51,848 bases of DNA from Anaeroplasmataceae bacterium (GTDB lineage Bacteria; Bacillota_I; Bacilli_A; Acholeplasmatales; Anaeroplasmataceae): positions 1 through 51,848 of the forward strand of contig JAZRVY010000097.1 in the NCBI GenBank assembly GCA_045599405.1, given 5' to 3'. This document shows, in pieces, positions 1-50,872 of the stretch (the first letter of the stretch is position 1; the number at the start of each line of letters is the position of its first letter). The notes below the pieces were generated by a model. It saw only the letters and a list, made by a program, of their open reading frames with translations. It was not told the DNA's origin and did not search any database. Position numbers and translations under genes: made by a program.

Positions 1-95
1 TGCCTCCACATTTAAAATAACTTTCCATCATTACTATTATACATTAATATTAGAAATAAAAAAACTAAGAGATTAACTCCTAGTTTTAGTATACG

Positions 96-120
96 AAAAG
101 GACTTCTAGTGAAGTCCTTT
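96..120 (-). terminator. intrinsic terminator downstream of the PFOR gene
   Basis: Minus-strand hairpin AAGGACTTC-acta-GAAGTCCTT followed by TTTTCG, starting a few nt after the stop codon at 129-131. Confidence 0.6.
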
Positions 121-128
121 GATTTATA

Positions 129-6922: not shown

Positions 6923-7001
6923 AATTATGTCCTCTTCTTTCATAATCTAACAAAATAGATTATATCACTATTTAACAAGTAGTTATTTATGAAAACGTTT
7001 A

Positions 7002-9864: not shown

Positions 9865-9940
9865 TGGTGCCGACTATAGGAATTGAACCCACAACCTACT
9901 GATTACAAGTCAGTTGCTCTACCGATTGAGCTAAGTCGGC
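9865..9940 (-). tRNA. tRNA-Thr (anticodon UGU)
   Basis: Reverse complement starts GCCGACTTAGCTCAATCGGTAGAGC, has the anticodon loop C-T-TGT-A-A in stem ACTGA/TCAGT, a T-arm GGTTCAATTCC, and ends in an encoded CCA. Confidence 0.9.
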
Positions 9941-9944
9941 ATAA

Positions 9945-10020
9945 TGGTGGAGGTTAACGGGCTCGAACCGCTGACCCTCTGCTTGTAAGGCAGATGCTCT
10001 CCCAACTGAGCTAAACCTCC
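9945..10020 (-). tRNA. tRNA-Val (anticodon UAC)
   Basis: Reverse complement starts GGAGGTTTAGCTCAGTTGGGAGAGC, has the anticodon loop C-T-TAC-A-A, a T-arm GGTTCGAGCCC, and ends in an encoded CCA. Confidence 0.9.
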
Positions 10021-10025
10021 AAAAC

Positions 10026-10102
10026 TGGCGCACCATAGAGGACTCGAACCCCTAACCTTTTGATCCGTAGTCAAACGATCTATCCAATTGATCTAATGGT
10101 GC
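10026..10102 (-). tRNA. tRNA-Arg (anticodon ACG)
   Basis: Reverse complement starts GCACCATTAGATCAATTGGATAGATC, has the anticodon loop C-T-ACG-G-A in stem TTTGA/TCAAA, a T-arm GGTTCGAGTCC, and ends in an encoded CCA. Confidence 0.88.
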
Positions 10103-10105
10103 AAG

Positions 10106-10181
10106 TGGCGGTTCGGACGGGACTTGAACCCGCGATCTCCAGTGTGACAGACTAGCATGTTAACCACTACACCACCGAACC
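10106..10181 (-). tRNA. tRNA-Asp (anticodon GUC)
   Basis: Reverse complement is GGTTCGGTGGTGTAGTGGTTAACATGCTAGTCTGTCACACTGGAGATCGCGGGTTCAAGTCCCGTCCGAACCGCCA, with the anticodon loop C-T-GTC-A-C. Confidence 0.9.
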
Positions 10182-18462: not shown

Positions 18463-18503
18463 ACAAAATAAAAAGGATTATACTAATAAATAGTAATAAT
18501 CCT
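18463..18503 (-). terminator. intrinsic terminator ending the giant-protein operon
   Basis: Minus-strand hairpin AGGATTAT-(14-nt loop)-ATAATCCT followed by TTTTTATTTTG, about 13 nt below the stop at 18517. Confidence 0.55.
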
Positions 18504-18516
18504 CTTATTTAAAATA

Positions 18517-21072
18517 TTAAAGTGCTGAAGATACCTTTGAAAGAATTGTTCCTGCAAATGATTCAATAGGCGCCTCCTCATTATATGAATGATATAATGC
18601 GACAACATAAATATCAACTAATAATAAAGCTCTATTTGCTTTATTTTCAGGAAGATTTGAAAGGAATACTTTAACAAATTCAACCTCTAATACATTATCT
18701 GAAAGTAGCTTCATGTTTGTCTCATTATACATCACATTATTGGCAGCGCTATTAAATTCAACTTCAGCATTTAAATATATTTGCCATAAATATACAACAT
18801 GTGTGTCTACTTCAATATTAACCTTATTGTATTCAGCTATTACTGCTGCACTAGCTTGCTCATTAGTATCACATCTTGATACAATAGAATCCTTTAATGC
18901 CTCAATTACATCAGCAAAACCAGTAACAAGTGATGCAGCTAGCTCATCAATATCAGTAACATATTTTGCTATGATTTCATCAATTTCATTGACTGATGTT
19001 GCATCATCAATAGCAGCAGCTACAGCCTCTGTTAGATTATAAATTCCTTCATCAATTATATCCCAGTCTTCATTATCTACTTCATCATTTGCATTATATG
19101 CATAAACTGCATACTTATCAATTAAATCTATTTTTTCAAGCTTAATGTTAGATAATGCTGTGAAATCATCCTCTACTGCGTCAATTAATAAGCATGCCTC
19201 ATCATAAGCATCCTTAACAGCATCCTTTGAAGTAGCTGCGTTAATTAATGCCTTTGCATCAGCAAGAGCAAAATTATATTCTGCCTCATTAACTGTATAG
19301 TTAAATGGATCTGCCACCTTATAGGTTTTTATTAAAGTAATATATTTAGCAATCTCCTCTTCAAGCTCAGATGCCTTTGTTGGAATAGAATCTATTTGAA
19401 CCTTTAATTGCTCTAATAAAATATCTACATCAGCAGGACTAGTTTGTCTATTGATTTCTGCTGTTCCATTTTCAATAATTGAGGCAATACCAACTTGATT
19501 ATCAGTTGAATAATCAGCTAAATTTACATAGCTATTTAATTCACTAATTGCAAGAGCCTTACTATCATTTAAAATCTTATCTTGATTTGTAAACTCATCT
19601 AAGAATGTTTCTAATGCATCAGCAATAATTGTATCAATATCAGTCATAGCTGTTGCAGCTTGTAATAAGTCATTTGAGCTATTATACTTAGCCTCAATAT
19701 TTGGCTTAACAGTCTTATAAACTGCTTCACTATTCATATAATATTCCTTAGCTGCTGTTAATGCTTCAAGTGACTTTGATTTATATTGTTCTAGATTAAC
19801 AAGATTTGTACATGCAGCTAAATTATCAAGCTTAAGTGCATTGTCATAAGCCTTAAATTCAACGTGTGTAAAATATGAAGAAGCTAGTGCCTTTTTAGTC
19901 ACTAAATCATTATCATAATAAACACTAATTTCCTTATCAACATGATCAATATAAAGGTAAATGCTTAGTGTCTCATTTACTGCAATATTTTCAAATACCT
20001 CAGTTCCAACCTTTAGCTTTCCATTTGGTGTAACACTAATAGAAAGTACTAAGGAATTATCATTCATTAGATTAATATAATCATAGCTACTTTCTGATAG
20101 CGGATCCTCTTCTATCTCTCTTGTTAATGTAAATGTTATATACATTAATCCTGTATTATATCCATATCCAATATTTGCATAAGCCTTATTGTTGATAATT
20201 AATTGACCATTTACATTAGTTTCCTCTGATGAATAAACACCTTTTTTAATTACAGTTTGCTTAGCGATAGTACCACTGTTGAAATTTTCATCAAGAATAA
20301 CATTAGCCTGATGTCTTATACTTTCATATAAATCTAGCTTTATCCATTTTGCATATAAAACTGTATTAGCTTCAATAGTATCATTCAAATTAGCCTTATG
20401 TACAAAATTCATTTCATAATACCATCCATCAAATGCATAATTATCCTTCTTCATGTCATTTGGAAGATTAGATAGCTTATTACCCTTATACGAATCTATA
20501 GTCGTACCATTATTAGTAACAAATGAGATATTATATATATCAGTCCATTTAGCAATAAGCTTAACATCTGATGTTATCTCATCATTTAATTGTGCCTGTG
20601 TTCCATTTTCATAGAACCAACCTTCAAATATAGCATCAGCATATGTAAGCTCTGGTAGTATTTCAATCTTTGTTGCACCAACAATAGCCTCTGGTGCTGT
20701 ACCATATTTTGTTTCATATGTAATTGTAAGCTTTTGTGTCCACTTAGCTGTTAATGTTGTATTAGCGGTAATCTTATCTCCAATATTGGCCTTTGTATTA
20801 TTTTGATAATACCATCCATCAAAATAATATCCATCATCAGTAATCTCTGGTAGGCTAGTAATTGATGTTACACCTGTAACTTGTATAGGCGCGATACCTT
20901 TGTCTGTAACGTAAGTTACTGAATATGTAGTAACAACCACAGGTGGTCCTGGTGGTGGAGGCGTTGGTGTTGGCTTTATAGTATTTTTCTTTCCACAAGA
21001 TGCTCCAGCAACTAAAATAGTTCCAGCAACCGCTAAAGACACAAATATACTTCCTAGTTTTTTCTTATTCAT
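18517..21072 (-). CDS. surface lipoprotein with three Listeria-Bacteroides (Flg_new/InlB B-repeat type) repeats, a probable lectin-like jelly-roll domain and helical repeats
   Basis: Lipoprotein signal MNKKKLGSIFVSLAVAGTILVAGAS-C, then a PTPTPPPPGPP linker. Three ~65-aa units end in FDGWYY...L.AKW. The middle region (LIINNKAYANIGYGY...VEFKAYDNALKLDNLA) looks like a beta-sandwich. The C-terminal ~400 aa is helical repeat. Confidence 0.8.
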   Translation of the reverse strand: MNKKKLGSIFVSLAVAGTILVAGASCGKKNTIKPTPTPPPPGPPVVVTTYSVTYVTDKGIAPIQVTGVTSITSLPEITDDGYYFDGWYYQNNTKANIGDKITANTTLTAKWTQKLTITYETKYGTAPEAIVGATKIEILPELTYADAIFEGWFYENGTQAQLNDEITSDVKLIAKWTDIYNISFVTNNGTTIDSYKGNKLSNLPNDMKKDNYAFDGWYYEMNFVHKANLNDTIEANTVLYAKWIKLDLYESIRHQANVILDENFNSGTIAKQTVIKKGVYSSEETNVNGQLIINNKAYANIGYGYNTGLMYITFTLTREIEEDPLSESSYDYINLMNDNSLVLSISVTPNGKLKVGTEVFENIAVNETLSIYLYIDHVDKEISVYYDNDLVTKKALASSYFTHVEFKAYDNALKLDNLAACTNLVNLEQYKSKSLEALTAAKEYYMNSEAVYKTVKPNIEAKYNSSNDLLQAATAMTDIDTIIADALETFLDEFTNQDKILNDSKALAISELNSYVNLADYSTDNQVGIASIIENGTAEINRQTSPADVDILLEQLKVQIDSIPTKASELEEEIAKYITLIKTYKVADPFNYTVNEAEYNFALADAKALINAATSKDAVKDAYDEACLLIDAVEDDFTALSNIKLEKIDLIDKYAVYAYNANDEVDNEDWDIIDEGIYNLTEAVAAAIDDATSVNEIDEIIAKYVTDIDELAASLVTGFADVIEALKDSIVSRCDTNEQASAAVIAEYNKVNIEVDTHVVYLWQIYLNAEVEFNSAANNVMYNETNMKLLSDNVLEVEFVKVFLSNLPENKANRALLLVDIYVVALYHSYNEEAPIESFAGTILSKVSSAL

Positions 21073-21100
21073 AAGATATCACTCCTTTAATTGCTAATAG

Positions 21101-21126
21101 AGGAGTATACCAAAAGGTATACCCCT
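21101..21126 (-). other. intercistronic stem-loop between the giant gene and the lipoprotein gene
   Basis: Minus-strand AGGGGTATACC-tttt-GGTATACTCCT forms 11 bp including one G-U pair. It is not followed by a T-run, so it is not a canonical terminator. Confidence 0.45.
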
Positions 21127-21132
21127 ATATTA

Positions 21133-24100
21133 TTATTCTTTTTCTGTAAGAGTTACTAAGAACTCATCAGATGTTGATAATCCCCAATTTGATTCATTCA
21201 CTTCTGCTGAAGGAATAATCTCAATATCTAAGGCTATCTTTTGCATTACGATTGATGGTGGTGGTAAGTATGCACCAGCTTCAACCGCTGTGTTATTATT
21301 TGTATTTTCTTTTCCTTGACTCGTAATAGAGAATGTTCCTGTGTATGCTCCTGGTAAGCTTACTTGGAAGTAACAATATCCACGAGGTAATGCAGGTATA
21401 GAATACTCAAACTTAAACTTCTTTACAGATCCTTCTGTAGTATCATAAATTAAGTTACATGCAATTGTCTTAGTAGTCATTTCATTTGTTTGATCATCGT
21501 AAACATTTACGATAATATTCATATAAATTGATGTTAAATCAACTGCAATTGGAGTACTAACCTCCATCTCAAAGAAGATAGTATTTGTTAAGTCAATTAA
21601 CGCAACATGATAGCACTTGAAGTGTACGCTATCCTCATTATTTAATGCATCCTCTGATAATACAATGTAAGATACATACCAGAAATGATCATCTACTGGA
21701 GTACCAAAATAATCCATGTATAGAGATCTATTTTCAGTTGGGTTACCTGCATAATCAGCAAGATTATATAATGTGTCATTATATGTCACTGACTTATCCT
21801 CATTTACGCTATCTGCAACTAAAGTTGTAGCAGCATTTGTTCCATCATAATCTGTTGTATATACCTTACCCCAAGCAGAGTCAGTATATTCAACAAGAAG
21901 GATAATTTCAGAGCTTCCGCTTACGAATGGAACATATAGTAATACACCATCATGAGTAGATAAAATTTGCTCATCTGACTTAGTTGTTGTCTTACCCTTA
22001 CCATATTCCCTTAGCTTTGTTAAAGTTGTATATTGGTAAATTTCAGAATAGCTATTAATCTTGAATGTTGGAGCATAATTAGATAGGTTAGCATTAGATA
22101 CTGTACCTACGATAAAGTAATCATGAATATAAGATTCAGGATTTGTTCCTTCATATCCATTATAATTAATCTTCTTGCTATCAACATGAATCTTGTTATT
22201 AATATCACTTTCAGTTAAGAAGCTATATAATACTTCATTACCTTCTTTTTCTTCTCCAGGTCTAACTGGTGAAGTTGGATACATAACTGTTGCAAGTGTT
22301 GAAAGCTTAACTGCAGAATCAAGGAATGTAATCTTTCCAAGTAACGCATCAGTAGAATATTGCTTTGTAATAGATACTTCAGGGAATACATACTCTCTAG
22401 TATATTCTCCATCTGTCCATGTAGCTGTATTCTTATAAATATAATTGAATACATATGTTCCTGCAGATGCAGAATCAGATACTACTGCTGTGAATCCTGA
22501 TTGAGCTAATGCTGTAACAATAGCTAAATCCTCTGGTGCAGTAATTCCGTATTCAACGTTTTCACCATCAGTATAGAATCCTGATAATGAATACTTCATT
22601 TGATATTGTGGCTCTACTCCTCTTTCAAATGAATCAGCAAACTTGTTTTGATCCATATCAGAGCTCCATGTCTTAGTAGCAGCCTTATTACCATCCTTAT
22701 ACATATCAGCATAAGTAATGTTTTCTCCACCATATGCTTCTTTTTCTCTTAGCATATGTGTATATGTATTAGTTGTTCCATCCTCTGCTGTTACAACAAT
22801 TGATACAGTATAAGTCATTAAAGATGTTGAGCTAGATAATGCCTTAGTAGCTGAAATTGTAAATGTAGCACAGTCAGAAACTGTTAATACGTTTAGATAG
22901 AAATTAGTACTTGAAGAGTCTGTTAAATCATCATAATCAAACATCTCTCCGAACTTAATTTCAGTTGTAGCTTGATAGCTTGTCCATGTAAGTGGCTTAC
23001 CCTCAAACTCAGACTCAACGATATAAGCTTGGTTAGAAGCTTCCTTAGTAAATTCTACCTTCTTTACAACTCCATAGATATCAACAACAATGTTGTAATC
23101 TCCAGCTGGAAGTGTAGAGAAAATAGTAAATCCTAGGCTAGCAATACCATTTTCATCAACAACACAATCAGTTGTTAATTCATAATCATCAAATACATCT
23201 GTTCCAGCCTTATTTTCAATATAAATATAAGGTGTAACATCAAAGTTTTCTGGTAGCTTTTCTGTATCAACAGAACCTGCTGCAGGCGATGATAATGTTA
23301 GATTAATTGTTCCATTTGTATATGGGATAGAAATTGAAGTTGCATGGCTTGATTCATATAAATCAAAGCTAATATCAATTTCTTCAATAATTAATACATA
23401 GTTTGCAATTACTGTTACATCCTCTGCAAGTACCTTAATAATGTTTGGATTTTCACCAACTGATAAATCAAATGCAGTTGTTAAATCAGTGGAATTATTC
23501 ACATATAATGTAGCATTATTAGCAATAATTGAATTATAAATCTTAACTCCATCAAGATACTCAAATCCCTTAGGAACATAATATGTAATTGTCTTGTTAT
23601 CTAGATCAATATTACTTTCTGATGAGTAAATAATTGAACCATCTGTTGCAATTAAATCTAGAGCGAATACTGTAGTAGAAATTGACTTCTTTAATTGCTT
23701 CATATCTACTAAGAATCCATAGTTAACAGAGCTTGTATCAGATACATCATTCTTTTGAGCATCTGTTGTTTCTCCCTTACCACCACGCCACGATGATGAT
23801 ACAGCAGAAATTAGCTCTGGACCATTAGATGTAATCTTATAATCAACATCCATTGAAGATAATGTTAGGTTGTCTGGTAAGAATGTACCATTCTTGATAC
23901 CTTGGCTTGATGCAAGAGCATAAATACCATATCCAGATGCAGATGTATTGATTTCTAGGTATGCCATTAAAGCATCAAACTTATTGAAATCAAATGTACC
24001 TGAATTAGAAATATATCTATACTTAGAATCAAATGATGTATTTAAAATATTAGCAAACTTAGTTTGAGAAACATTTACTGAAGTATTTAATAATGACTCA

Positions 24101-27100
24101 CTATAAATGTTTGCGTAATCTGTAGCTAAGTATGCTGATAATAATAATGCCTTGAACTTATCAGTTAGCTTAGCTGCACTATTATTCTTTAGATAAGTAA
24201 TTATTGATGAGAAGAACATTACATTTTCATCAATTAGCTCATCTGATAAAATCGTTTGAATCATTTGTGGATCTGTGAATTCATCAAACACGATATTCAT
24301 TGTCTTATTTGAATATCCTGCAAGCTTTAATAATAATGTATTGTCAGCCTTCATTGCATTTTGAAGAGCTGTTACATCAGATGTATTTCCTGTAAGTGGT
24401 ATGAAGTATACTAATAAATCTCTTAAGAAATTATTTGTATTCATCTTGCTAATGCAAGCTTGTGCATACTTACCAGTTACACCATTAATTCCATAGAAAT
24501 CAATCTTTTCAGAATCAATATTAGCAAATGGATTATAATTGTTATCTAATCTATCCTTTGCCTCAGCAAGGGTACTTCCATCATTGAAATAATGAAGTGT
24601 AATTTCCTTAGTATTAGTTACAATTTCATTATATGAATATCCATATGTAACCTTATATCTAACAGCAGTAACAGATACGTCTGTAGTTTGATCTCCTTGA
24701 TACCATGCATTATTGCTACTTAGTATATACATTGGTTTACCATAGTATGAACTAACATCTACATATCCAGATTGAACTGTGCTTCTTCTTGACATAGATT
24801 GATTTTCAAGTAATTTAGTACCCCAAGTCACTTCAGCAACAAGAGAATAATAATATGTACTAGTCTTGTAGTTATAAACTGACACACTTATTTCAGCACC
24901 AGAAATAGTTACTCCACTATGACCATTATTGGCTTCAATATCAGCAGCAAATTCTGCTAATGTTGGAACAGTAAATGAAGTTGTTGTTCTTTGATTATAT
25001 GTATTCTTTGTATATTGTAAAGTATCCGTTCCAGCATGTGGAATAATAGTTTCTGTTGTTTCAACAGCGTATGAGTAAATATCATTAATAGTTAAATTAG
25101 CTGAACCTGAAATAGTAAGCGTAGTAACATTACTTAATGTATATTCATATGATGTTCTTGCGGCAGCTGTAGTTGTACTAGTTACTCTATTTGTTAGACC
25201 TCTAGAGATTGTACCACCTGCATTATATGCAAATGTCATTGTACCAGTGGCATTATTAGATGATGCTGTTACAATAGTAAGCTTAGTTTCCTTACCTGTT
25301 AGCTTTAATGTAATCGATCCATTTGTATCAAATGAAATCGCATATTGATTTGGTGCAGTGAACTTAGTATTTGTAACAATATTAACTCCTGTTGCAGCAG
25401 TTATATTATTAAATAGATTACTAAATGTTGCATCAAAATCTGATTTATTAAATTGCCCATTTGCATCTAGATATGCAGATGGATTTGCAAGTATTTTGTT
25501 TATTGCTGTTCCATAGCCAAAATACTCTTCATATTCTGCTTGAGTCAACTTACTACCATTAATAATGATTTGGTTAACCTCTTGGAATACTGTCTTATTT
25601 GAAGAATATGCTTGAATAAGCTTATTCTTATCATTTGTAATATAAGTGCTCATTAAATATTCATATAATGTAACAACGTTTCCACCTCTATTACATTGTA
25701 AATACTTAATTGCATCTGTGTTATTAACCTTAGTTGTTGTATTGATATTAGTTAGAATAAAGCTATCAATAAATGCTTCATTTACTTGATTATTCTTTGT
25801 TCCTAGCTTCTCTAGTAAGCAGGCAATAACAACACTACGGAATTTATTTACATTAGCAGACTTACAGAAATATTCATTGAATAATCTATTGATAAGTCTT
25901 CTTTCGTCTAATGATTGAACGATATTTCCTGATGATTCATAATAATCACCAATAATACCATCAATAGTTAGCATATCATCAGCATAGTAATCAATATAAG
26001 ATGTAGTATAGACTCTAGTTCCTGATGTCTTGTTAGTCCACCACCAGTTTCCATCCTTATTCTTATATAATCCTGTGTAGCTTGTGCTATGTAGCTTTGT
26101 AGTAGCATATGCATGGTATAAAGTCTTTCCATAATTCCAAATTAAATCTGCCCATCCATGATATGTACAGTTAGTACCATTAGCACCAATGATTAGATTT
26201 GAAGCATCATGCTCTTTAGAGTTATGGTTAGAAGTATGATTTCTAGACGATGTACTATCTCCTACAATTGTAGAGAAATAGTGAATAACTCCGTTAGCAT
26301 CTGTTATATAGAAATATCCATAATAGTTAGAATCAGAATAATTTGTTCTATTAATTGTATATTTTGCTTGAGATGTAACGATGTTTGTAGAATTTTGACG
26401 ACAGTATGGAGAGATAACTCCTCCACGAGCATTAAACTCAACTCCTGCATCATCAACAAGCCATACATCCTTTAAGCTTGTCATCTGACATCCTGTAAAG
26501 TCGGTGATAATATATCCATACTTCTTACCGAAATTCTTACTTGAATCTGTATCTCCTCCACGGAAATATGGAGCCGAACCATTATAGTTTCCTAAAATCT
26601 TTACAGATGTAAATTGGTTATTTGAAGCTCCTGATCCATACTCATAGTAATATGGTGTATAGTCAGTTACATAACCATCAGCCACATACCTATCCATGAA
26701 GTCCTTATCATCAGATACGAATACTGACTTATATCCTCCTTGGTTACCATCTAAGGAAGGCGCTACAGTTGGAGTCGTACCAGCACTTCTCTTATTTCCA
26801 TTTGCATCTGTATATGGTCCGTAGTAATAAGTTTTATCAGTTACAGTAGTTGCATATGTATAAGCAACGTCTCCTGTATACTTACCATCAGTAATAGGCT
26901 CATAATCTGAACGATATGTATTACGAGTATCAATTGCAACATCATAGAATAATCTACCTGTTCCAAGTAATTCCTTTACATACTTTTGGAATGTATCAGT
27001 TGTTCTTAAATCATTATATAGGTTAACACGAGCTGTTGTTGTAGCATTGTCTGTTGAGTCACTAATTGTTGTTGAATTAGTCTTTACTTGATCAACATAG

Positions 27101-30100
27101 CTAGACATATTAGTCATGTTATATCCTTGCTCTGTAAACTCTGGGTAAATTCCTAGCTCATTATCCATTACAGAAACATATGCTTCCATGTTATCTCTAG
27201 ATGTAGATAATATATTCTTATATAGAATAAACTTTCCATCAGCATCAAGATTTGTGTATGATGCATATAGCTTTAATGATACATCATCTGCATTTTCGAT
27301 AGCTTGTCTAGCTTCAGCTGATAACGCATAGCTTAACGATGTATAGAATAAATCATCATCAATGCTTCCAAAGAAATCAACTGCTAGGTTGTATCTTTGA
27401 GCCTTATCTGCATAATTGAAGAACTTAGCTCCATTTGAAATTAAATAATCATTATAGCTACTTACAAGTGAATAAACTGTAGCATCATTAACTTGTGATA
27501 TATAGCTATTTAAAGCTGATTTTACATAAGTTTTAATTTCATTATCAGTTGTTGATGTAAGTACGTCAGCAAGTACCTCACAGTATCCATCTGCTGTAGA
27601 GAAATTAAGTAGCTCAGATCCTGTAATGATTGTAGCGTCAGTATTTAAAATATATTGAGCAATTGCTTGACGTAATTGAGTTGTGATATATACATTTTCA
27701 GCACAGTCATCAGAGAAAATGTACTTAATTGTAGCCTTTAATGTATTAACATCTGATACTGTCTTAAATAATTCAGCAATAAGGGCATCAGCATTATCAG
27801 ATGATAGATTACTTACCCATGCTCCTGTATTTAATGCAGTAGTTACATTAGCACTATATTGGCTAGAATTTAATGTATTATACTTATTAACAAAGATATT
27901 TACATATTCAAGGTTTTGAGCAAAGTCATTTGCTGCTGTTGAATATGCAATTGCACGCCATCCAATCTTATCTAGTAATACATCATTAATCTTTGTGTAT
28001 CCTACGAATTGGAAGTAGTCAGCAAGGAATGAGTCTGTTGCGTAGCTAGCATCTAATCCCTCACCATTAATTGCCTTATAGAATGCGAAATTCTCATTGA
28101 ATACTCCCCAGTAATCAGTCTTATTGTCCTTGCTACTAATTACTTGCTTCTTACCTGTTGTAAGAGGTGAGTATACCATGTTTGTATTTAAATATTTATC
28201 TACCTTATTATATCCATTTTCATATAGTAAATAAGCTGAGTACATCTTAGTTGTATCTACTACTGTTGAGTCTGGTGTTGAAGATTCAGCACCTACGAAT
28301 GGGATATAATCAAGGAAGTTAATTAAATATCTAATCTTAACGTATTGTGCATTGCTAGATCCGTTGAAGTTAACTAACGCGAAGATAGATCCTGTGAATG
28401 TTGTATTTCCATACTCTAGTTCAATCTTAGCCTTAGTAAATGTTCCAAATGTTCCACTTGCAAAGCTTACAATATTTGTATAACGAGGTCTAACTGATGT
28501 AGAATCCTTGAAGTTATTTTCTCCCTTCTCAATTTGCCATACGTTACCGTAGTTAATTGAGTTAGCTAATGATACTGAAGTTGCATTAGATGTAACCTCA
28601 TTCTTAAAGTCCTTAAAGTATACAACTCCGAAAATTCCTGAACCAGTTTCGTTACCATAGATATTTCCATAGTTTGTTGTATTCATGATATTACATAATC
28701 CCACTCCTAGTATACCAGCTGAAATTGAAGTTGGATCGTAGTCAGATGATGTAATGTTATCAATATTGTTATAAGCAATAACATCTCCATAGTTAATAGA
28801 GTATGAAATTAATTGCTTTGAATGTCCGTTATTTGTTGTGTAATCTGCATTAGCCTCTGTCTTGTTATTCTTTGCAGAAATACCTGCAGCTACTACTAGT
28901 CCCTTTTCGTTAGTTCCTGTAGCTCCTGACATATTCGCAGCTAATATAGATCCATTATTTGCACAGTTTAAAATATATGCATATTTACCAACATTTAAAA
29001 CACTTATACCAGCGGCATTAACCTCCATCTTAGTAGTTGTGCTCTTAATGTAGTTAGCTCCAAAGACATTTCCAAGATTGAATGTGTTAGTTATTACCGA
29101 TTTATTTAAATAAGTAATACCAGATACATTTACATTCTTTTCAAAATATCTAGTTGGTGCGTTTTGCATTGTATATCTATTACCGATTGTTTGTCCACCA
29201 TTTGATGATGTTACAGTTGTATTTCCATAAGAAATAGATCCAAATGCAGTTGAGTTAGTAATCTTAATTTGACCATTATTAATAGCCTTATCAAGTACTC
29301 CTACCTTCTTATTGTTATATGAAGATGAGCTTGGATTATATTGATCTAATTCAACATCAGTTAATCCATTTTCAACCTTATAGCAAATTCCGTTAAAGAA
29401 TAAATCACAAGATGCAGCCTTATCACAATCAAAGATAATATCTCCATTGTTGTATAATCCTGAAGCCTTAAATCCTGCTGAAATTTCTTGACAAATTCCA
29501 CTTACAACGATTCCATCAGCACACGTATTAAACTTATTGCTAATATCAAATGTGATACCTCCTTCATTGTAGATTCCTTCAAGATTGTAGTATTGTCCAA
29601 CAATAACTCCTGCAAGCTTATATGCTACATCTAATTGATTAATTTCAGCATTATTAGAAATATATTTAACATCTCTAAAGTTATATACTGATTTTGCATT
29701 AACTGAATGAGAATTATTTGTACCAACATTATTAATTACACCTGCATACTTATGTACATAATGTAAATTTAATGTTTGTGGAGTATTCATAAATACCTTA
29801 GATCCACTTGCTGAATACTTATATCCAAGGTTATAAATTCCTGATAATTCAGATTGGAATCCATTCTTAGAAATGATATTCATAACTCCTGCATATTCTG
29901 CTCTCTTGTTATATGTTGTAATGCTTAATGTTCCTGAGCTTGATACTCCTGAAGCATAGAACATAAACTTAGATAGCTTCTTTAATTGTGAAGCTGGAGT
30001 TTGAGTTTGTGTTGTTTGAACGTCAGCATTAATAGCTCCCGAAACATATGTATAACCATCTGCAATATTATAAATAGTAATATCTCCTTGGTTATGAATA

Positions 30101-32196
30101 TTTTGAATTTCCTTAGTAACTCCAAGTAAACGTCCAATACATCCTGCTGTATAAACACGTCCGATATTATTGTCAGTTGATGAACCAGCAATTATATTTC
30201 CTTTGTTTTCTAGGTTCTTACAGTTATTAGTATAAGCAGCTCCTACCACTCCTCCTACACTTTGGTAGATGTTTGTAGATGATGCGAACTTACCAACTGT
30301 AACTGTTGCTCCGTTTAATAATGTATCAAGGTTACAGAATGTACCATCAGAAAATCCTAGGATTCCTCCTAATGCATTTCCTTCAATAAATCCTGATGTA
30401 TTTGTGTATATAGTTGATTTATCTGTTGAATGTCCTTCACCAGCATCAATAGATCCTGATGTAGTAACTCCATTTAAAGTTCCTTGACCAGATAATACCC
30501 CTACTGCAGTACCTGCAAAGTATCTATCTACTCCAGTTAAATCTACATTAGCATATACATTAACATTTGAAACAGTACCCTTCTCTACGAATCCAGATAC
30601 AACTCCAATAGCCTTAATATTAGATTGATTTGAATTAAAATTTTTAACATCTGCTGTTTGATAGATGTTAAGATTTGAAACTGTTCCTGTTAGCCAAGGG
30701 AATACTCCATAGCAGTCAATACCTGTTGTAGTTACCTTGTTCATAACAGTCGCATCAAAGATAGTAGGATACTTAGAAGCTACACCATTCATATCATAAA
30801 CTGTTGTTCTTCCATCCTTTTCCTTACCCTTGATTGTACATCCGATATATGAATCATACTTGTAAGAAGTTGTTGGGACATTCTTTAAGTAAATATCCTC
30901 CATGATTTGATATGTAATCTTATTTGATGCAAACATCGCAGACATGTTCATAAGTTCATACATATACATGTAATCATATTCATCATAAACATCAAATGTC
31001 TTTGTTGATGCATCATAATCAAGTCCACGTAAAATTGGAGTTTCAATATTTAAGCTTGACTTTAAGTCATCTCCATAAGATGAGCTAATATACCACTTGC
31101 TAGAAGATGCAGCAACTGCATTATTTAGTTTTAACAAAGTATCTTGATACTTTAAGTCAGCTGTAACTGTATATTTTCCATTAAATGGAATTAATCCTGG
31201 CTTATATGCAATTTTTTCTATAGATCCATCATAGCTATATGTTTCAATAGACTTATCATAGAAGAATAGATTTTCTGTTTCTCCAGAGTTAATAGCAACT
31301 ATATTTTGGCTTGATAGATATCCCATGTTAATAACCGAGTGAGATATTACAATATTTACAGCTGTATAAGAATTCTTTAGTTTTCCTGTATTAGTATAAA
31401 CTAAACCAGATACTGCTACTTGTCCAGCAACAACGATTCCGGCTTCATCCTCAATTGGATCAAGGAAATCTCTTACATATGTGTATTCTACTGTACCAAC
31501 ATTGATACCAACTAGGTATGATACCGATTGAAGTCTTGACATAATTGTACTTGCATTAATTACGATAGATGGCGAAATTAATCCAAGATTTTGAATAGCT
31601 CCTGTATTCTTAGAGAACATCGCAAAGTTTTCCATTGATGAATAAGCAAGAGAGTTTTCATTTGTTAACTCAATCATCTTTAATTCATTAATTTCATATC
31701 CATTTCCATCAAACGTTCCTGAGAACGGTTCACCTGTCTTCCATCCTACAGGAATAAATTTATGTGATTCTCCATAAACACTATAATCAATATTTGTAAA
31801 TAGCTTATACTTGTATCCAAGATACTTAGCATTTGAATTACATAAAACAGAGAAAGCATAAAGCTCTTCTGGAGTTGTGATTGTAATTACATTTGAGCTA
31901 GTTACTGTTTTTGATGTAGCAGTAATTGTATCTCCACTAATTGTATAAAGCTCATTCATTGAAATAGCTGTTGTTGATGTTGCTGTGTTTGAAGCCGAAG
32001 GATTAATCTCGTTTTGGCTTCCTACATAATGCGAAACTTGTCCTGAGAATTTTTCTGTTTCTGCTTCAGACGATTGTCCTCCACTTAAAATTCTCTTCCC
32101 ACTCTTTGTACTAAATACTGATACTATAGCTAAACAAAGGATTAAAGATATCACTGATGTTAATACTATAGTTAAAATTTTTCTTTTATTTTTCAT
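21133..32196 (-). CDS. giant (3687 aa) N-terminally anchored surface protein with a GLUG-motif/parallel beta-helix-like N-terminal third
   Basis: Uninterrupted 11,064-nt ORF after the ribosome-binding site AAAGGGGGAGA. N-terminal signal/anchor KILTIVLTSVISLILCLAIVSVFS. The module ITTPEELYAFSVL...IPVGW..EPFSGTFDGNGYEINELKM...IQNLGL..., followed by many G-x-(I/V/L)-G coil repeats (GGILG, GGVVGA, AGCIGR, AGISA, AGILGVG), is typical of GLUG-type adhesins. There is no C-terminal LPxTG or hydrophobic tail. Confidence 0.85.
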   Translation of the reverse strand: MKNKRKILTIVLTSVISLILCLAIVSVFSTKSGKRILSGGQSSEAETEKFSGQVSHYVGSQNEINPSASNTATSTTAISMNELYTISGDTITATSKTVTSSNVITITTPEELYAFSVLCNSNAKYLGYKYKLFTNIDYSVYGESHKFIPVGWKTGEPFSGTFDGNGYEINELKMIELTNENSLAYSSMENFAMFSKNTGAIQNLGLISPSIVINASTIMSRLQSVSYLVGINVGTVEYTYVRDFLDPIEDEAGIVVAGQVAVSGLVYTNTGKLKNSYTAVNIVISHSVINMGYLSSQNIVAINSGETENLFFYDKSIETYSYDGSIEKIAYKPGLIPFNGKYTVTADLKYQDTLLKLNNAVAASSSKWYISSSYGDDLKSSLNIETPILRGLDYDASTKTFDVYDEYDYMYMYELMNMSAMFASNKITYQIMEDIYLKNVPTTSYKYDSYIGCTIKGKEKDGRTTVYDMNGVASKYPTIFDATVMNKVTTTGIDCYGVFPWLTGTVSNLNIYQTADVKNFNSNQSNIKAIGVVSGFVEKGTVSNVNVYANVDLTGVDRYFAGTAVGVLSGQGTLNGVTTSGSIDAGEGHSTDKSTIYTNTSGFIEGNALGGILGFSDGTFCNLDTLLNGATVTVGKFASSTNIYQSVGGVVGAAYTNNCKNLENKGNIIAGSSTDNNIGRVYTAGCIGRLLGVTKEIQNIHNQGDITIYNIADGYTYVSGAINADVQTTQTQTPASQLKKLSKFMFYASGVSSSGTLSITTYNKRAEYAGVMNIISKNGFQSELSGIYNLGYKYSASGSKVFMNTPQTLNLHYVHKYAGVINNVGTNNSHSVNAKSVYNFRDVKYISNNAEINQLDVAYKLAGVIVGQYYNLEGIYNEGGITFDISNKFNTCADGIVVSGICQEISAGFKASGLYNNGDIIFDCDKAASCDLFFNGICYKVENGLTDVELDQYNPSSSSYNNKKVGVLDKAINNGQIKITNSTAFGSISYGNTTVTSSNGGQTIGNRYTMQNAPTRYFEKNVNVSGITYLNKSVITNTFNLGNVFGANYIKSTTTKMEVNAAGISVLNVGKYAYILNCANNGSILAANMSGATGTNEKGLVVAAGISAKNNKTEANADYTTNNGHSKQLISYSINYGDVIAYNNIDNITSSDYDPTSISAGILGVGLCNIMNTTNYGNIYGNETGSGIFGVVYFKDFKNEVTSNATSVSLANSINYGNVWQIEKGENNFKDSTSVRPRYTNIVSFASGTFGTFTKAKIELEYGNTTFTGSIFALVNFNGSSNAQYVKIRYLINFLDYIPFVGAESSTPDSTVVDTTKMYSAYLLYENGYNKVDKYLNTNMVYSPLTTGKKQVISSKDNKTDYWGVFNENFAFYKAINGEGLDASYATDSFLADYFQFVGYTKINDVLLDKIGWRAIAYSTAANDFAQNLEYVNIFVNKYNTLNSSQYSANVTTALNTGAWVSNLSSDNADALIAELFKTVSDVNTLKATIKYIFSDDCAENVYITTQLRQAIAQYILNTDATIITGSELLNFSTADGYCEVLADVLTSTTDNEIKTYVKSALNSYISQVNDATVYSLVSSYNDYLISNGAKFFNYADKAQRYNLAVDFFGSIDDDLFYTSLSYALSAEARQAIENADDVSLKLYASYTNLDADGKFILYKNILSTSRDNMEAYVSVMDNELGIYPEFTEQGYNMTNMSSYVDQVKTNSTTISDSTDNATTTARVNLYNDLRTTDTFQKYVKELLGTGRLFYDVAIDTRNTYRSDYEPITDGKYTGDVAYTYATTVTDKTYYYGPYTDANGNKRSAGTTPTVAPSLDGNQGGYKSVFVSDDKDFMDRYVADGYVTDYTPYYYEYGSGASNNQFTSVKILGNYNGSAPYFRGGDTDSSKNFGKKYGYIITDFTGCQMTSLKDVWLVDDAGVEFNARGGVISPYCRQNSTNIVTSQAKYTINRTNYSDSNYYGYFYITDANGVIHYFSTIVGDSTSSRNHTSNHNSKEHDASNLIIGANGTNCTYHGWADLIWNYGKTLYHAYATTKLHSTSYTGLYKNKDGNWWWTNKTSGTRVYTTSYIDYYADDMLTIDGIIGDYYESSGNIVQSLDERRLINRLFNEYFCKSANVNKFRSVVIACLLEKLGTKNNQVNEAFIDSFILTNINTTTKVNNTDAIKYLQCNRGGNVVTLYEYLMSTYITNDKNKLIQAYSSNKTVFQEVNQIIINGSKLTQAEYEEYFGYGTAINKILANPSAYLDANGQFNKSDFDATFSNLFNNITAATGVNIVTNTKFTAPNQYAISFDTNGSITLKLTGKETKLTIVTASSNNATGTMTFAYNAGGTISRGLTNRVTSTTTAAARTSYEYTLSNVTTLTISGSANLTINDIYSYAVETTETIIPHAGTDTLQYTKNTYNQRTTTSFTVPTLAEFAADIEANNGHSGVTISGAEISVSVYNYKTSTYYYSLVAEVTWGTKLLENQSMSRRSTVQSGYVDVSSYYGKPMYILSSNNAWYQGDQTTDVSVTAVRYKVTYGYSYNEIVTNTKEITLHYFNDGSTLAEAKDRLDNNYNPFANIDSEKIDFYGINGVTGKYAQACISKMNTNNFLRDLLVYFIPLTGNTSDVTALQNAMKADNTLLLKLAGYSNKTMNIVFDEFTDPQMIQTILSDELIDENVMFFSSIITYLKNNSAAKLTDKFKALLLSAYLATDYANIYSESLLNTSVNVSQTKFANILNTSFDSKYRYISNSGTFDFNKFDALMAYLEINTSASGYGIYALASSQGIKNGTFLPDNLTLSSMDVDYKITSNGPELISAVSSSWRGGKGETTDAQKNDVSDTSSVNYGFLVDMKQLKKSISTTVFALDLIATDGSIIYSSESNIDLDNKTITYYVPKGFEYLDGVKIYNSIIANNATLYVNNSTDLTTAFDLSVGENPNIIKVLAEDVTVIANYVLIIEEIDISFDLYESSHATSISIPYTNGTINLTLSSPAAGSVDTEKLPENFDVTPYIYIENKAGTDVFDDYELTTDCVVDENGIASLGFTIFSTLPAGDYNIVVDIYGVVKKVEFTKEASNQAYIVESEFEGKPLTWTSYQATTEIKFGEMFDYDDLTDSSSTNFYLNVLTVSDCATFTISATKALSSSTSLMTYTVSIVVTAEDGTTNTYTHMLREKEAYGGENITYADMYKDGNKAATKTWSSDMDQNKFADSFERGVEPQYQMKYSLSGFYTDGENVEYGITAPEDLAIVTALAQSGFTAVVSDSASAGTYVFNYIYKNTATWTDGEYTREYVFPEVSITKQYSTDALLGKITFLDSAVKLSTLATVMYPTSPVRPGEEKEGNEVLYSFLTESDINNKIHVDSKKINYNGYEGTNPESYIHDYFIVGTVSNANLSNYAPTFKINSYSEIYQYTTLTKLREYGKGKTTTKSDEQILSTHDGVLLYVPFVSGSSEIILLVEYTDSAWGKVYTTDYDGTNAATTLVADSVNEDKSVTYNDTLYNLADYAGNPTENRSLYMDYFGTPVDDHFWYVSYIVLSEDALNNEDSVHFKCYHVALIDLTNTIFFEMEVSTPIAVDLTSIYMNIIVNVYDDQTNEMTTKTIACNLIYDTTEGSVKKFKFEYSIPALPRGYCYFQVSLPGAYTGTFSITSQGKENTNNNTAVEAGAYLPPPSIVMQKIALDIEIIPSAEVNESNWGLSTSDEFLVTLTEKE

Positions 32197-32211
32197 GATA
32201 TCTCCCCCTTT

Positions 32212-32901
32212 CTAGCTATTTAGGAATTCATCTAGATTATCAATTCCCCATACATTCGAAGCACGGTTTGCTTGAACAATATCAATCGAGAATTGAACAT
32301 TTACCATGATTGATTCACGGTAAGAAATATTTGTTTCTGGTTCTGCATAATATGTTGAGTCAACGTCAAATGAGTATGAGTGACTTTCACTTGATGCAGC
32401 AACTGGCAGTTTTAAATATGCACAGTTAGTTGAAGCATCAAACTTCCAATTTGAATCTGTGATTGCGAATGGTGAAGTCGATGGCTTATTTGTATAAGTG
32501 TTTGTAATAACTGAGTTTGTATATACCTTTCTTGAAGTCCAAGTGTCTCTTATTTGAAGTCTTACATATACAAGCGTTGTATTAGTAAATGAGAACTTTA
32601 AACCAATTTGATTTAGGTAATCATATTCAAGCTCATCTGAATATCCATGCTTCTTTGATGCATAGCATGTAATTTTTGTTTCATTTACCTCTGCAGGTGT
32701 TGACTTTCTCTTAGCATTAAAGTCATCATCTACTCCATCAGAGTAATTTAAGAATGATTTGTTATCAATAGTTAGGCTTGCAAGACCAACCTCTTCATCC
32801 TTTGTTTCTCTATGGAAATAGTATGCCGCGCTAATAACAATTGTTGTCATAACTAAAATTGCAAGTGTTAGAGGTAAAATTATAAGCATTTTCTTTTTCA
32901 T
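32212..32901 (-). CDS. small secreted protein, TasA/camelysin-like (SipW-type signal peptide), paralog 3
   Basis: Signal MKKKMLIILPLTLAILVMTTIVISAAYYF. The C-terminal strand SIMVNVQFSIDIVQAN resembles the TasA-family terminal block (..QFSFEATQ..). It lies 4 nt downstream of paralog 2. Confidence 0.6.
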   Translation of the reverse strand: MKKKMLIILPLTLAILVMTTIVISAAYYFHRETKDEEVGLASLTIDNKSFLNYSDGVDDDFNAKRKSTPAEVNETKITCYASKKHGYSDELEYDYLNQIGLKFSFTNTTLVYVRLQIRDTWTSRKVYTNSVITNTYTNKPSTSPFAITDSNWKFDASTNCAYLKLPVAASSESHSYSFDVDSTYYAEPETNISYRESIMVNVQFSIDIVQANRASNVWGIDNLDEFLNS

Positions 32902-32905
32902 AATC

Positions 32906-33514
32906 TTACTCCTCCTTTATTGCAGTCATAGCAAGTACGTAGCTATAAGTTGCGCTTAGATAATCATTGTTTGATAATGCAACCGGATTAATTCCGTATA
33001 CATAAACATAAATGTCTGCTGTATCTTGTGGAGCTAGCGACTCAATAACATACTTGTTTGTTGTAATATCAGTCATCGAATTCTTCTCTAGGTAATCAGT
33101 TACTGTAGTTACTCCATCTCTTACATCATCATTTGCTTTTGTAAAATCCTTAGTTGCAATTGCTGACTCAATATGAGCCGCCTCTAAATCAACGCCCGTC
33201 ATATTTTGGTTTATTTCAATATCGATATTTACTCGACATTCATTTCTTAAAGTCACCTTAAAGATAAATGCCATTCTTCCAAGATATTGTCCTTCCTTTG
33301 GTGCTGTCTTATCAAAGAAGGCAATATTTTCAATATCTAAAGTTTTTACGTTATTGAATCTATCATCAACCTGATACGAGAATACGATACCAGTTGTAGA
33401 CGCATCAATAGGTTGAGTCTTATAACGTCTGATATACCATGCATGAGAAATTGTTGTTCCAATGATACAAGCTATTAGCATTAATCCAATAAATACAAAT
33501 AATTTCTTTTTCAT
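32906..33514 (-). CDS. small secreted protein with a SipW-type signal peptide, paralog 2
   Basis: Signal MKKKLFVFIGLMLIACIIGTTISHAWYI. Start set at 33514, after AAAGGAGG; the ORF-track start is 33532. Similar size and organisation to its two neighbours. Confidence 0.55.
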   Translation of the reverse strand: MKKKLFVFIGLMLIACIIGTTISHAWYIRRYKTQPIDASTTGIVFSYQVDDRFNNVKTLDIENIAFFDKTAPKEGQYLGRMAFIFKVTLRNECRVNIDIEINQNMTGVDLEAAHIESAIATKDFTKANDDVRDGVTTVTDYLEKNSMTDITTNKYVIESLAPQDTADIYVYVYGINPVALSNNDYLSATYSYVLAMTAIKEE

Positions 33515-33553
33515 AGTATTGCCTCCTTTCAAATAGTTTTCTTTAATAATTCA

Positions 33554-34285
33554 CTAAGCTGTGAATGTTACGTTTAGATGGTCAATATGCATATTTTGAT
33601 ATGAATAACATGAGTTATCATCTAAATCTAAATATTCAAGTGCGAAATAACAATATTGAGCTCCACCCGATGTAATTTGTGCACCAGTTGGTCCAAGTAG
33701 TAAGTCATAGATTTCTCCTTTTTCAATTCCAGAGATATCAGCTTCCCAAGCTTCATAATCTACTCCATGACTTCCCATTGGGATTGTTGCCATCGCATGC
33801 TCGATTGCATATTCGTCATTTACGAACACTTCCCAAACATCCTGATCATTCATAGCAATATCGTATAGCACATCACCATTTTCTAATTTAACTTGATTGT
33901 TTTCGTCTATTTCAAATACTGTAACATCGTTATATACAAGAATCTTTTCAACCATATCAATTTCAAGCTCTTCAATCATCGTTGTTGATATGTCTTCAAA
34001 TTCTGCATTTACATTTACACTTGGCTGAGTTGTAGAAAGCTTAAATCTAAAATAAAATACATCTCCTGGCCACATATCCTCAAGCTCAATTTCCTCAAGG
34101 TATTCCCACTCACCCTTAACAGGATTATATGACTCTAATTGGAATGTGCATTCCTCTCCACCAATAGGAACTAGCAATCCACTTGTTGTTCTTTTATTGT
34201 TTGTAAACCAAGCAAAGCTGATTGCGAATGAAACCAAAATCACTAGGACAAACGAAATACTATAAATTATTAACTTTTTCTTCAT
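33554..34285 (-). CDS. small secreted protein, TasA/camelysin-like (SipW-type signal peptide), paralog 1
   Basis: Signal MKKKLIIYSISFVLVILVSFAISFAWFTNN, compared with TasA GGGTWAAFND and camelysin GTFAYFSD. It has an MWPGDVFYFRFKL block like the TasA LKPGD...F.F block. The ORF-track start at 34294 is GTG; the ATG at 34285 follows GAGGTGG. Confidence 0.65.
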   Translation of the reverse strand: MKKKLIIYSISFVLVILVSFAISFAWFTNNKRTTSGLLVPIGGEECTFQLESYNPVKGEWEYLEEIELEDMWPGDVFYFRFKLSTTQPSVNVNAEFEDISTTMIEELEIDMVEKILVYNDVTVFEIDENNQVKLENGDVLYDIAMNDQDVWEVFVNDEYAIEHAMATIPMGSHGVDYEAWEADISGIEKGEIYDLLLGPTGAQITSGGAQYCYFALEYLDLDDNSCYSYQNMHIDHLNVTFTA

Positions 34286-34308
34286 TTCTCCCACCTCTTT
34301 TGTTTATA

Positions 34309-34338
34309 AAAAAAGTTGCAACACAAAGTATTGCAACT
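34309..34338 (-). terminator. intrinsic terminator acting as the riboswitch expression platform
   Basis: Minus strand reads GUUGCAA-uacuuugug-UUGCAAC followed by U7. It sits between the aptamer and the ribosome-binding site of the first operon gene, not after any gene. Confidence 0.7.
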
Positions 34339-34407
34339 GGCTATCCATAATCGGACCCTTTAGCTTTGCGTCACTAGATTACTCTAGCTTTGCTAAATTA
34401 TACTTCT
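34326..34407 (-). promoter_or_regulatory. c-di-GMP-I (GEMM-I) riboswitch aptamer
   Basis: Minus strand reads AGCAAAGC-UAGA-GUAA-UCUA-GUGACGCAAAGCUAAAGGGUCCGAUUAUGGAUAGCCAG. It shows the conserved GCAAA, a GNRA-capped hairpin, the near-invariant GACGCAAAGC, and a second hairpin closed by GCUA/UAGC followed by C. This is the GEMM-I arrangement as I remember it from Vc2 and clostridial examples. Confidence 0.75.
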
Positions 34408-34474
34408 ATATTTTATAACTTATAACTATCTTTTTCAAGCCTTTTATATAGTATATATAAATATACGTACTTAA

Positions 34475-34503
34475 ATTATACCATTTTTTATATAGTATGA
34501 CAA
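34475..34503 (-). promoter_or_regulatory. near-consensus SigA promoter for the riboswitch-led operon (TTGTCA-N17-TGgTATAAT)
   Basis: Minus strand reads TTGTCA (34503..34498), an exact 17-nt spacer, then TGG plus TATAAT (34480..34475). The predicted leader is about 180 nt. Confidence 0.65.
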
Positions 34504-34515
34504 CCTTTTAGGACA

Positions 34516-34549
34516 AATAAAAATACCCCCTCACTTATAAGTGAGAGAG
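34516..34549 (-). terminator. intrinsic terminator after leuS
   Basis: Minus-strand hairpin CUCUCUCACUU / AAGUGAGGGGG (with G-U pairs) followed by UAUUUUUAUUU, about 10 nt below the leuS stop at 34559. Confidence 0.65.
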
Positions 34550-34558
34550 TATCTAGTG

Positions 34559-50745: not shown

Positions 50746-50846
50746 AAAAAAGTCTCCTTTTTTGGCGAAATAATACAATTCACGCATTATATATAATATC
50801 ATTATATCTTTTAAAAATCAAGGAATATCTCAATTTATCATACTAA

Positions 50847-50872
50847 TAAAAAAAAGCCTTTTTTCAAGGCTT
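50847..50872 (-). terminator. intrinsic terminator after the YhaM-like gene
   Basis: Minus-strand hairpin AAGCCTT-gaaaa-AAGGCTT overlaps the stop codon and is followed by TTTTTTTTATTAG. Confidence 0.6.

Follow-up and report, generated by a model that had tools for sequence, protein, structure and literature searches.

What does a c-di-GMP riboswitch control at this locus, and what might the genes behind it build? The DNA analysed here, referred to as the window, is a 51,848-nucleotide stretch (positions 1 to 51,848) of contig JAZRVY010000097.1 of an Anaeroplasmataceae bacterium (assembly GCA_045599405.1). [quoted passage not shown] A first account, made from the letters alone (the sequence-only reading), had proposed that all five form a second-messenger-gated surface fibre or adhesion system with TasA-like subunits. 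Judging by related loci, the conserved unit is the riboswitch together with S1, S2, S3 and the giant, that is, four genes and not five. On balance the evidence tips towards a c-di-GMP-induced cell-surface module, in which S1 would provide a TasA-like fibre or stalk and the N-terminally anchored giant the adhesive component. This riboswitch-S1-S2-S3-giant unit is not described in databases.

A four-gene unit conserved in related loci

One genome per species was scanned with an alignment of residues 1–1200 of the giant and a single relative; four contigs from metagenome-assembled genomes (MAGs; L002–L005, Table 1) proved to encode relatives of the giant over its full length. In L003–L005, three small open reading frames (ORFs) ahead of the giant are collinear with S1, S2 and S3 at 23–36% identity, and an Rfam c-di-GMP-I aptamer precedes the first small ORF in each. 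A metagenome scan with an S3 alignment yielded 36 further contigs, all of 27–32% GC. Hidden Markov models of the three small families assigned the ORFs cleanly to S1, S2 and S3, which stand in this order ahead of a large ORF with homology to the giant. The S1-S2-S3-giant order is present in about 30 of the 36 metagenome loci and in about 35 loci altogether. Genes flanking the module are of the housekeeping kind and differ from locus to locus, with no family seen in more than two of 42 flanking ORFs. On sequence comparison, the clade that carries the module is one of low-GC gut and rumen bacteria. A word-indexed protein search returned S1 itself as the sole match for S1 and one relative for residues 1–1200 of the giant, and a query with the concatenated S1+S2+S3 alignment returned nothing.

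The 851-aa protein encoded after the giant was rightly read as a lipoprotein: it has the lipobox LVAGASC and three Listeria-Bacteroides repeats (Pfam Flg_new PF09479, 3.9e-26; TIGR02543, 1.9e-12). A search against PDB sequences gave nothing useful for it. In no related locus is the giant followed by an orthologue; where the contig extends past the giant’s end, a different gene or an opposite-strand gene is found. The sequence-only reading had counted the lipoprotein as part of the system and had named recurrence of the five-gene order with the riboswitch as a check. Four of the genes do recur, well beyond this strain, but the lipoprotein has no counterpart, and by this comparison its gene is a strain-specific passenger or local addition outside the conserved unit.

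Rfam detected the aptamer in 17 of the 19 loci scanned. A pattern search found the aptamer core in L095 and L114 and the aptamer 3′ end in the cut-off locus L097; overall, of the 22 loci that extend far enough upstream, about 20 have the aptamer. Tandem aptamers stand before S1 in several loci, triple in L084 (86–343) and L086 (3144–3396) and double in L100 (7291–7453) and L101 (2004–2166), at 54–71 bits each.

Variants of the module were also seen. In L106 (628–1191), riboswitch and S1 are separated by an extra 187-aa ORF with an internal start and a similar N-terminus (MKKISILAILSIFTILICTAVTFASVLF..), which adds a fourth small member of the family at that locus. L095 (2221–10624) has the aptamer core (9331) directly before S3 and the giant, without S1 and S2, and two large secreted proteins (1321 and 971 aa) are encoded upstream of this variant module. 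In L096 (718–2534), group II intron RNA domains enclosing a 426-aa intron-encoded ORF lie a few kb upstream of the module.

The riboswitch and its expression platform

The aptamer lies in the 5′ leader, between promoter and S1, and matches the Rfam model over its full length (model positions 1–87), with an E-value of 2.9e-7 over the whole window and a score above the gathering score of 35. The c-di-GMP riboswitch named by the sequence-only reading is thus borne out. In the Rfam alignment, the second helix of the aptamer is closed by AGCU on the 5′ side, paired with AGUU at 34338..34335; next after this closing helix comes a candidate P1 of 5 bp, AGUAU with AUACU. The 5′ arm of the terminator, AGUUGCAAUAC, contains both of these aptamer 3′ partners, AGUU and AUACU, and aptamer and terminator are therefore mutually exclusive. 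In nearly all related loci the terminator 5′ arm is likewise the aptamer 3′ strand. The typical stem there is (G)AUAGCCAGUUGC with its complement, followed by U5–8, and the overlap with the aptamer 3′ strand is plainer in those loci. From the strand overlap, which is observed, we infer that the riboswitch is an ON switch acting by anti-termination. Read in this direction, the platform fits the expression at high c-di-GMP that had been predicted.

Genes and transcription signals

The five ORFs run head to tail, each behind a Shine-Dalgarno sequence, and their exact coordinates give the intergenic gaps reported earlier (39, 4, 15 and 60 nt). The proposed promoter is the top-scoring site of an 18.5-kb scan, with 11 of 12 matches plus the extended TG, and lies just downstream of the terminator (34554..34521) of leuS, the gene upstream of the unit. 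The hairpin and TTTTTATTTT of the terminator proposed at the other end are present as well; the consensus terminator scan omits this hairpin, whose stem has fewer than three G–C pairs.

Within the unit, the terminator scan found no further terminator-like site on the minus strand, in keeping with the single transcription unit that had been claimed. Directly after the giant, however, stands a strong stem-loop (ΔG −20.6 kcal/mol, z −4.98; 0 of 200 shuffles fold equally well), which makes co-transcription of the lipoprotein gene less certain than that of the other four genes. This stem-loop may be an mRNA 3′-end stabiliser, a processing site or a partial unit boundary before the lipoprotein gene.

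Table 1 Features of the unit in the window, and MAG contigs with relatives of the giant
Feature	Position	Strand	Details
Sigma-70-type promoter	34475..34503	minus	TTGTCA, 17-nt spacer with TG, TATAAT
c-di-GMP-I (GEMM-I) aptamer	34329..34404	minus	Rfam RF01051, 51.5 bits
Expression-platform intrinsic terminator	34305..34338	minus	11-bp stem + U7 run; terminator scan, minimum free energy fold
S1	33554..34285	minus	243 aa from ATG behind GAGGTGG
S2	32906..33514	minus	202 aa
S3	32212..32901	minus	229 aa
Giant surface protein gene	21133..32196	minus	3687 aa
16-bp stem-loop, no U run	21095..21132	minus	Directly 3′ of giant stop codon
Lipoprotein gene	18517..21072	minus	851 aa
Probable unit terminator, AT-rich hairpin + TTTTTATTTT	~18503..18463	minus	ΔG −14.5, z −3.67
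L002			MAG contig with full-length giant relative; deposited as uncultured Bacillales
L003			MAG contig with full-length giant relative; deposited as Acholeplasmatales
L004			MAG contig with full-length giant relative; deposited as Anaeroplasma
L005			MAG contig with full-length giant relative; deposited as Anaeroplasmataceae

S1 as a probable outlier of the TasA superfamily

In an exhaustive phmmer search, 1.84 billion cluster representatives yielded 52 relatives of S1, all belonging to the S1 family; none of the 45 relatives that were scanned has a Pfam or NCBIfam assignment. The AlphaFold2 model of S1, based on a 45-relative alignment, has a predicted local distance difference test (pLDDT) score of 90.4 and a predicted template modelling score of 0.78. 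It comprises one continuous, high-confidence helix (residues 2–30), a low-confidence segment (31–42) and a beta-rich sandwich domain (46–242). The N-terminus bears an AWF-TNN motif, and segment 31–42 is conserved yet unstructured in the monomer model.

Among 350,542 PDB chains, the top Foldseek match of this model is the TasA fibre determined by cryo-electron microscopy (8aur_A, probability 0.92). Carbohydrate-binding modules are also among the matches, at E-values similar to that of TasA. Profile comparison points the same way. In hhalign, the S1 profile aligned with a TasA/CalY profile at an E-value of 6.3e-5; the 180 aligned columns are collinear and extend from signal peptide to last strand. 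A reversed-profile control gave 0.41. The TasA/CalY profile was made from six sequences, namely mature TasA, checked against the PDB, and five TasA-family genes of the B. cereus group taken from plasmid records. In the resulting register, A-W-F of S1 lies with A-x-F of TasA, N-i-x-P-G-D with N-L-K-P-G-D, Y-F-A-L-E-F-N with F-x-F-x-D, and N-x-Y-x-Y-Q with Q-N-x-F-Q-G. With TasA as a single sequence, hhalign recovered the N-L-K-P-G-D patch only; tblastn of TasA against the related loci gave no match, and searches of PDB sequences with the S1 and S3 family profiles did not retrieve TasA.

From model, Foldseek and profile together, S1 is probably a very distant member of the TasA superfamily. The TasA-like fold that had been proposed for all three small proteins thus has moderate, converging evidence for S1, whereas the matches of S3 are generic. 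The TasA/camelysin-style signal peptides fare similarly: the motifs resemble each other (A-W-[YF]-T-N and A-[YF]-F-S-D), but TIGR04088, the model for the SipW-dependent-type signal peptide, matched none of the window proteins and one of the 45 S1 relatives, at an E-value of 0.04.

Kinship of S1, S2 and S3

All three small proteins begin with M-K-K-K and about 21 hydrophobic residues, followed by a conserved aromatic motif that reads A-W-[YF]-x-x-N in the S1 family, A-W-Y-T-N in S2 and A-A-F-x-F in S3. Few blocks of S1 and S2 are as well conserved as A-W-[YF]..N; in the window, the corresponding N-termini are ..SHAWYIRR.. for S2 and ..SAAYYF.. for S3. BLASTP among the three proteins found similarity confined to the N-terminal signal segment of S1 and S2. 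Family profiles, built from 22–38 sequences (30 for S2 and 38 for S3), reached further: S1 and S2 align in hhalign over 103 columns, roughly the first 100 residues, at a probability of 96.6% and an E-value of 5e-10. The S3 profile joins S1 and S2 over the N-terminal 35–55 residues only, and the bodies alone do not align. The description of the three as paralogues is thus supported for S1 and S2 over this stretch; S3 shares with them the N-terminal segment.

No Pfam or NCBIfam model matches S1, S2 or S3. Against the TasA/CalY profile S2 reached an E-value of 0.017 in hhalign, and it is probably a TasA-superfamily member, tied to TasA through S1 alone. The AlphaFold2 model of S3 is mediocre (pLDDT 67), with weak Foldseek matches to generic jelly-roll and ConA-type lectin folds; on this model, S3 appears to be a beta-sandwich of uncertain affinity. 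Its C-terminus carries a strongly conserved VQFS-DIVQANRA-VWG motif, and in the relatives its gene often abuts or overlaps the start codon of the giant.

On the minus strand of one related locus, L108 (626–7055), a second c-di-GMP-I aptamer (6977–7055, 58.7 bits) points away from the S1 operon. It precedes the gene for a divergent protein of 2067 aa whose N-terminus, ..SITAIIYAAIASTSTRGDIEVS.., is of the S3/TasA-signal type; behind this gene, the contig end holds a fragment of a weakly S3-like ORF (3..605). This riboswitch-driven protein links the S3 type of N-terminus to large surface proteins.

The giant protein

The giant has a single hydrophobic segment, a signal-anchor helix at residues 5–33, with none elsewhere and no LPXTG, which agrees with the N-terminal anchoring first proposed. 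Thr, Ser, Asn and Tyr account for 37% of the sequence. Residues ~100–280 contain an F-S-G-T-F-D-G-N-G module that is widespread in bacterial and archaeal surface proteins, and residues ~600–1290 a repeat of about 40 residues, N-x-G-x-[IV] ... [AG]G[IVC]xG, which is GLUG-like by eye only; a long C-terminal region makes up another part. Neither Pfam (including GLUG PF07581) nor NCBIfam matched the giant, Pfam also when searched with ten pieces at E-values up to 1, and the earlier GLUG-type label is reduced to this by-eye pattern. A search against PDB sequences likewise gave no match.

The giant is homologous end to end with the 3218–4126-aa proteins of L002–L005. Across 38 giant N-termini the signal-anchor is common to all and is followed by a conserved stretch; the A-W-Y motif of the small proteins is absent. 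In four loci the giant frame is split into two ORFs (L001, 71–7281; L082, 1237–4152; L083, 10778–20736; L086, 6757–14904), which could reflect a frameshift, an assembly error, a pseudogene or phase variation.

Processing and anchoring

Among the 28 window ORFs of at least 100 aa that were scanned, no signal-peptidase (S24/S26), sortase or secretion-ATPase family was matched, and no peptidase is among the 25 families listed for the 42 flanking ORFs of related loci. The sequence-only reading had remarked that the window holds no SipW-type peptidase, sortase, TapA-like anchor or secretion ATPase; none was matched, and the flanks examined in related loci show no homologue of SipW, sortase or TapA either. 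The putative −3/−1 residues before the aromatic motif are S-F-A in S1, S-H-A in S2 and S-A-A in S3. They fit signal-peptidase rules, and their sequence would suit cleavage of the small proteins of the window; for S1 the predicted site is SFA|WFTNN, just ahead of Trp26. A C-terminal LPXTG sorting signal is found in none of the five unit proteins.

Two other kinds of surface structure were considered and rejected. For a sortase pilus, neither an LPXTG sorting signal in the five proteins nor a sortase in the window was found. Type IV pilin or pseudopilin signals would call for a motif of the G-F-T-L-I-E type, which is lacking, and the charged residues stand ahead of the hydrophobic stretch instead of behind a cleavage site.

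A model for the module and its alternatives

In the mechanism that we propose, a constitutive-looking promoter would start transcription. Without ligand, the terminator hairpin would take the aptamer 3′ strand and transcription would halt before S1; with c-di-GMP bound, the aptamer would keep its 3′ strand, no terminator would form and S1, S2, S3 and the giant would be transcribed together. S1, and S2 by its homology to S1, would be very distant beta-sandwich proteins of the TasA/camelysin superfamily with a TasA-type N-terminal signal or anchor. As the donor strand does in TasA, the conserved post-signal segment of S1, which lies outside the folded domain in the monomer model, may insert into a neighbouring subunit. 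Joined in this way, S1 could make up a short stalk or fibre to which S2 and S3 contribute as minor, initiating or adaptor subunits, S3 being comparable to TapA in role, not in sequence. The giant would sit in the membrane with its N-terminal helix and would project about 3,650 residues outward, a topology predicted from its sequence, as the presumed adhesive part. Any processing would use a peptidase encoded elsewhere. A narrower version of this model, which we put forward tentatively and with some doubt, is that wall-less gut bacteria of the Acholeplasma kind carry on their bare membrane a hitherto unknown donor-strand fibre independent of SipW, having S1 as shaft, S2 and S3 as initiator and adaptor and the giant as adhesive payload.

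Several results weigh against a TasA-like, c-di-GMP-induced module. The match of S1 to 8aur_A is weak (E-value 6.8e-3, template modelling (TM) score 0.32, root mean square deviation 9.4 Å), no PDB match reaches an E-value of 1e-3, and the hhalign probability of the S1 alignment with TasA/CalY is just 64.5%. Pfam Peptidase_M73/TasA, the NCBIfam TasA family and TIGR04088 gave no meaningful match in S1, S2, S3 or the 45 S1 relatives. S3 shows no specific TasA signal, its hhalign comparison with TasA/CalY giving an E-value of 0.049. Two loci, L083 (7600–8470) and L110 (1400–1935), have a complete S1-S2-S3-giant module with no recognisable upstream aptamer, and the taxonomic placement of the window rests on nearest homologues of 28–36% identity. 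Lastly, with no gene for a SipW-type peptidase in the vicinity, the N-terminal helices may persist uncleaved as membrane anchors.

Retained helices are the basis of the main alternative explanation, which is possible although we think it rather unlikely. Here S1–S3 would be bitopic membrane proteins with the A-W-Y motif at the membrane interface. They would form a membrane-proximal scaffold or chaperone complex, one for each giant molecule, to export, fold or hold that molecule; the riboswitch logic would be unchanged. The hydrophobic stretch of about 21 residues can span a membrane and is modelled with high confidence as part of the continuous helix 2–30; neither the window nor the flanks of related loci provide a dedicated peptidase gene; and the fixed gene order, with S3 and the giant abutting or overlapping in relatives, suggests stoichiometric co-production. 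The weakness of the similarity between S1 and TasA also speaks for such a complex. It accounts less readily for −3/−1 residues that fit signal-peptidase rules, for a conserved unstructured segment after the helix that resembles a donor strand in the monomer model, and for a collinear TasA profile match that takes in the signal region and the last strand.

The module might also be a general surface coat or nutrient-binding apparatus, in which polysaccharide binding would serve a c-di-GMP lifestyle switch and no fibre would form. This finds an echo in the carbohydrate-binding modules and ConA-type lectins among the Foldseek matches of S1 and S3, at E-values similar to the TasA match, in the window lipoprotein with its Listeria-Bacteroides repeats and in the sugar-acid catabolism genes upstream. 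We consider it improbable, given that the lectin and carbohydrate-binding matches have TM scores of about 0.25 or lower, typical of any beta-sandwich, and that no glycoside hydrolase or transporter is conserved beside the module, where the flanking genes vary by locus. It is more improbable still that the genes are mere neighbours, grouped by accident, with the riboswitch controlling S1 only. The strong hairpin after the giant does show that RNA structure can punctuate the unit, but about 35 loci whose flanks are unrelated share these four genes in one order, their gaps are tiny or the genes overlap, and there is no terminator-like site from S1 to the end of the giant.

Relation to known systems

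The TasA donor strand comprises residues 28–38, starting with A-F-N-D, directly after the SipW cleavage site (PMC9674648). The unit resembles TasA/TapA/SipW of Bacillus subtilis and CalY/TasA of the B. cereus group in having a signal that ends in small-x-A and is followed by aromatic residues. Further likenesses are N-L-x-P-G-D, F-x-F-x-[DN] and N-x-[FY]-Q motifs in the same order, a conserved segment right after the signal at the position of the donor strand, the modelled beta-sandwich of S1, whose best, though weak, PDB match is the TasA fibre, and several related small proteins per operon. In contrast to the TasA systems, the unit has no sipW in the operon or nearby and matches no curated TasA, camelysin or SipW-signal model; identity to TasA is about 10%, and there are three divergent families in place of TasA plus TapA. 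The module is also in every case coupled to an N-anchored giant of more than 3,200 aa and is controlled by a c-di-GMP riboswitch instead of SinR. The host is probably wall-less, which would leave no peptidoglycan for anchoring.

The sipW-bsaABC operon of Clostridium perfringens encodes BsaA, BsaB and BsaC, one of which is the polymer while the others improve it (PMC7395162). It is similar to the present unit in holding several small secreted proteins in one operon, but begins with sipW, has a two-component system and lacks a giant and a riboswitch. Archaeal bundling pili (AbpA) and other TasA-like donor-strand filaments are said to have a fold like that of TasA and to polymerise with no chaperone-usher machine; the 50 best matches that Foldseek listed for S1 contain none of these filaments.

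With respect to control, the closest parallels come from the B. cereus group, where riboswitch Bc2 precedes a collagen adhesin. Operons of this group and the present unit have the same riboswitch class, with a 5′ leader and terminator platform before surface proteins, and tandem aptamers occur in both. The surface proteins themselves differ, being LPXTG proteins anchored by sortase in the B. cereus group and N-terminally anchored proteins of unrelated families, without LPXTG, in the unit. In Bacillus thuringiensis, c-di-GMP-I riboswitches, including the triple tandem Bc3–5 before cspABCDE, lie ahead of surface-protein operons (PMC4759541).

To our knowledge, no defined output has been assigned to the GGDEF/EAL proteins of the Acholeplasma type. 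A full-text literature search found no paper that joins c-di-GMP, riboswitch and Acholeplasma. The wall-less Acholeplasma laidlawii has 14 GGDEF/EAL proteins (PMC2408644). Induction of a conserved surface module through a riboswitch would provide a concrete, testable c-di-GMP output for poorly known gut and rumen bacteria and, if the reading is right, the first c-di-GMP signalling output identified in the Mollicutes lineage. TasA-type polymerisation would then have been adapted to carry very large adhesins, and the 2067-aa protein of L108 points likewise. Should S1 polymerise without SipW and a cell wall, this would widen the view of how chaperone-free donor-strand fibres are made and anchored. 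New families can be defined for S1, S2, S3 and the giants of 3,200–4,100 aa, all of them without a Pfam or NCBIfam model, with S1 as a probable outlying branch of the TasA superfamily. The double and triple tandem aptamers add natural examples of multi-aptamer c-di-GMP control.

Other features of the window

Downstream of the unit lie aromatic amino-acid biosynthesis genes (prephenate dehydrogenase, dehydroquinate synthase and EPSP synthase), and sugar-acid catabolism genes are encoded upstream of it. The HD-domain protein encoded at 50871..51788 had been a candidate HD-GYP phosphodiesterase; by eye we take it to be a YhaM-type nuclease, and the candidacy was dropped. Adjacent to each other on the minus strand are genes for two large lipoproteins (44884..47718 and 47731..50802; 944 and 1023 aa) with lipoboxes LASC and LTSC and no Pfam family. 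Two minus-strand stretches (10291..11778 and 9868..10181) take in the gene for a 495-aa protein with an N-terminal membrane helix, a long, acidic, E/P-rich low-complexity stretch and two DUF1508 repeats, and an adjoining cluster of four tRNA genes.

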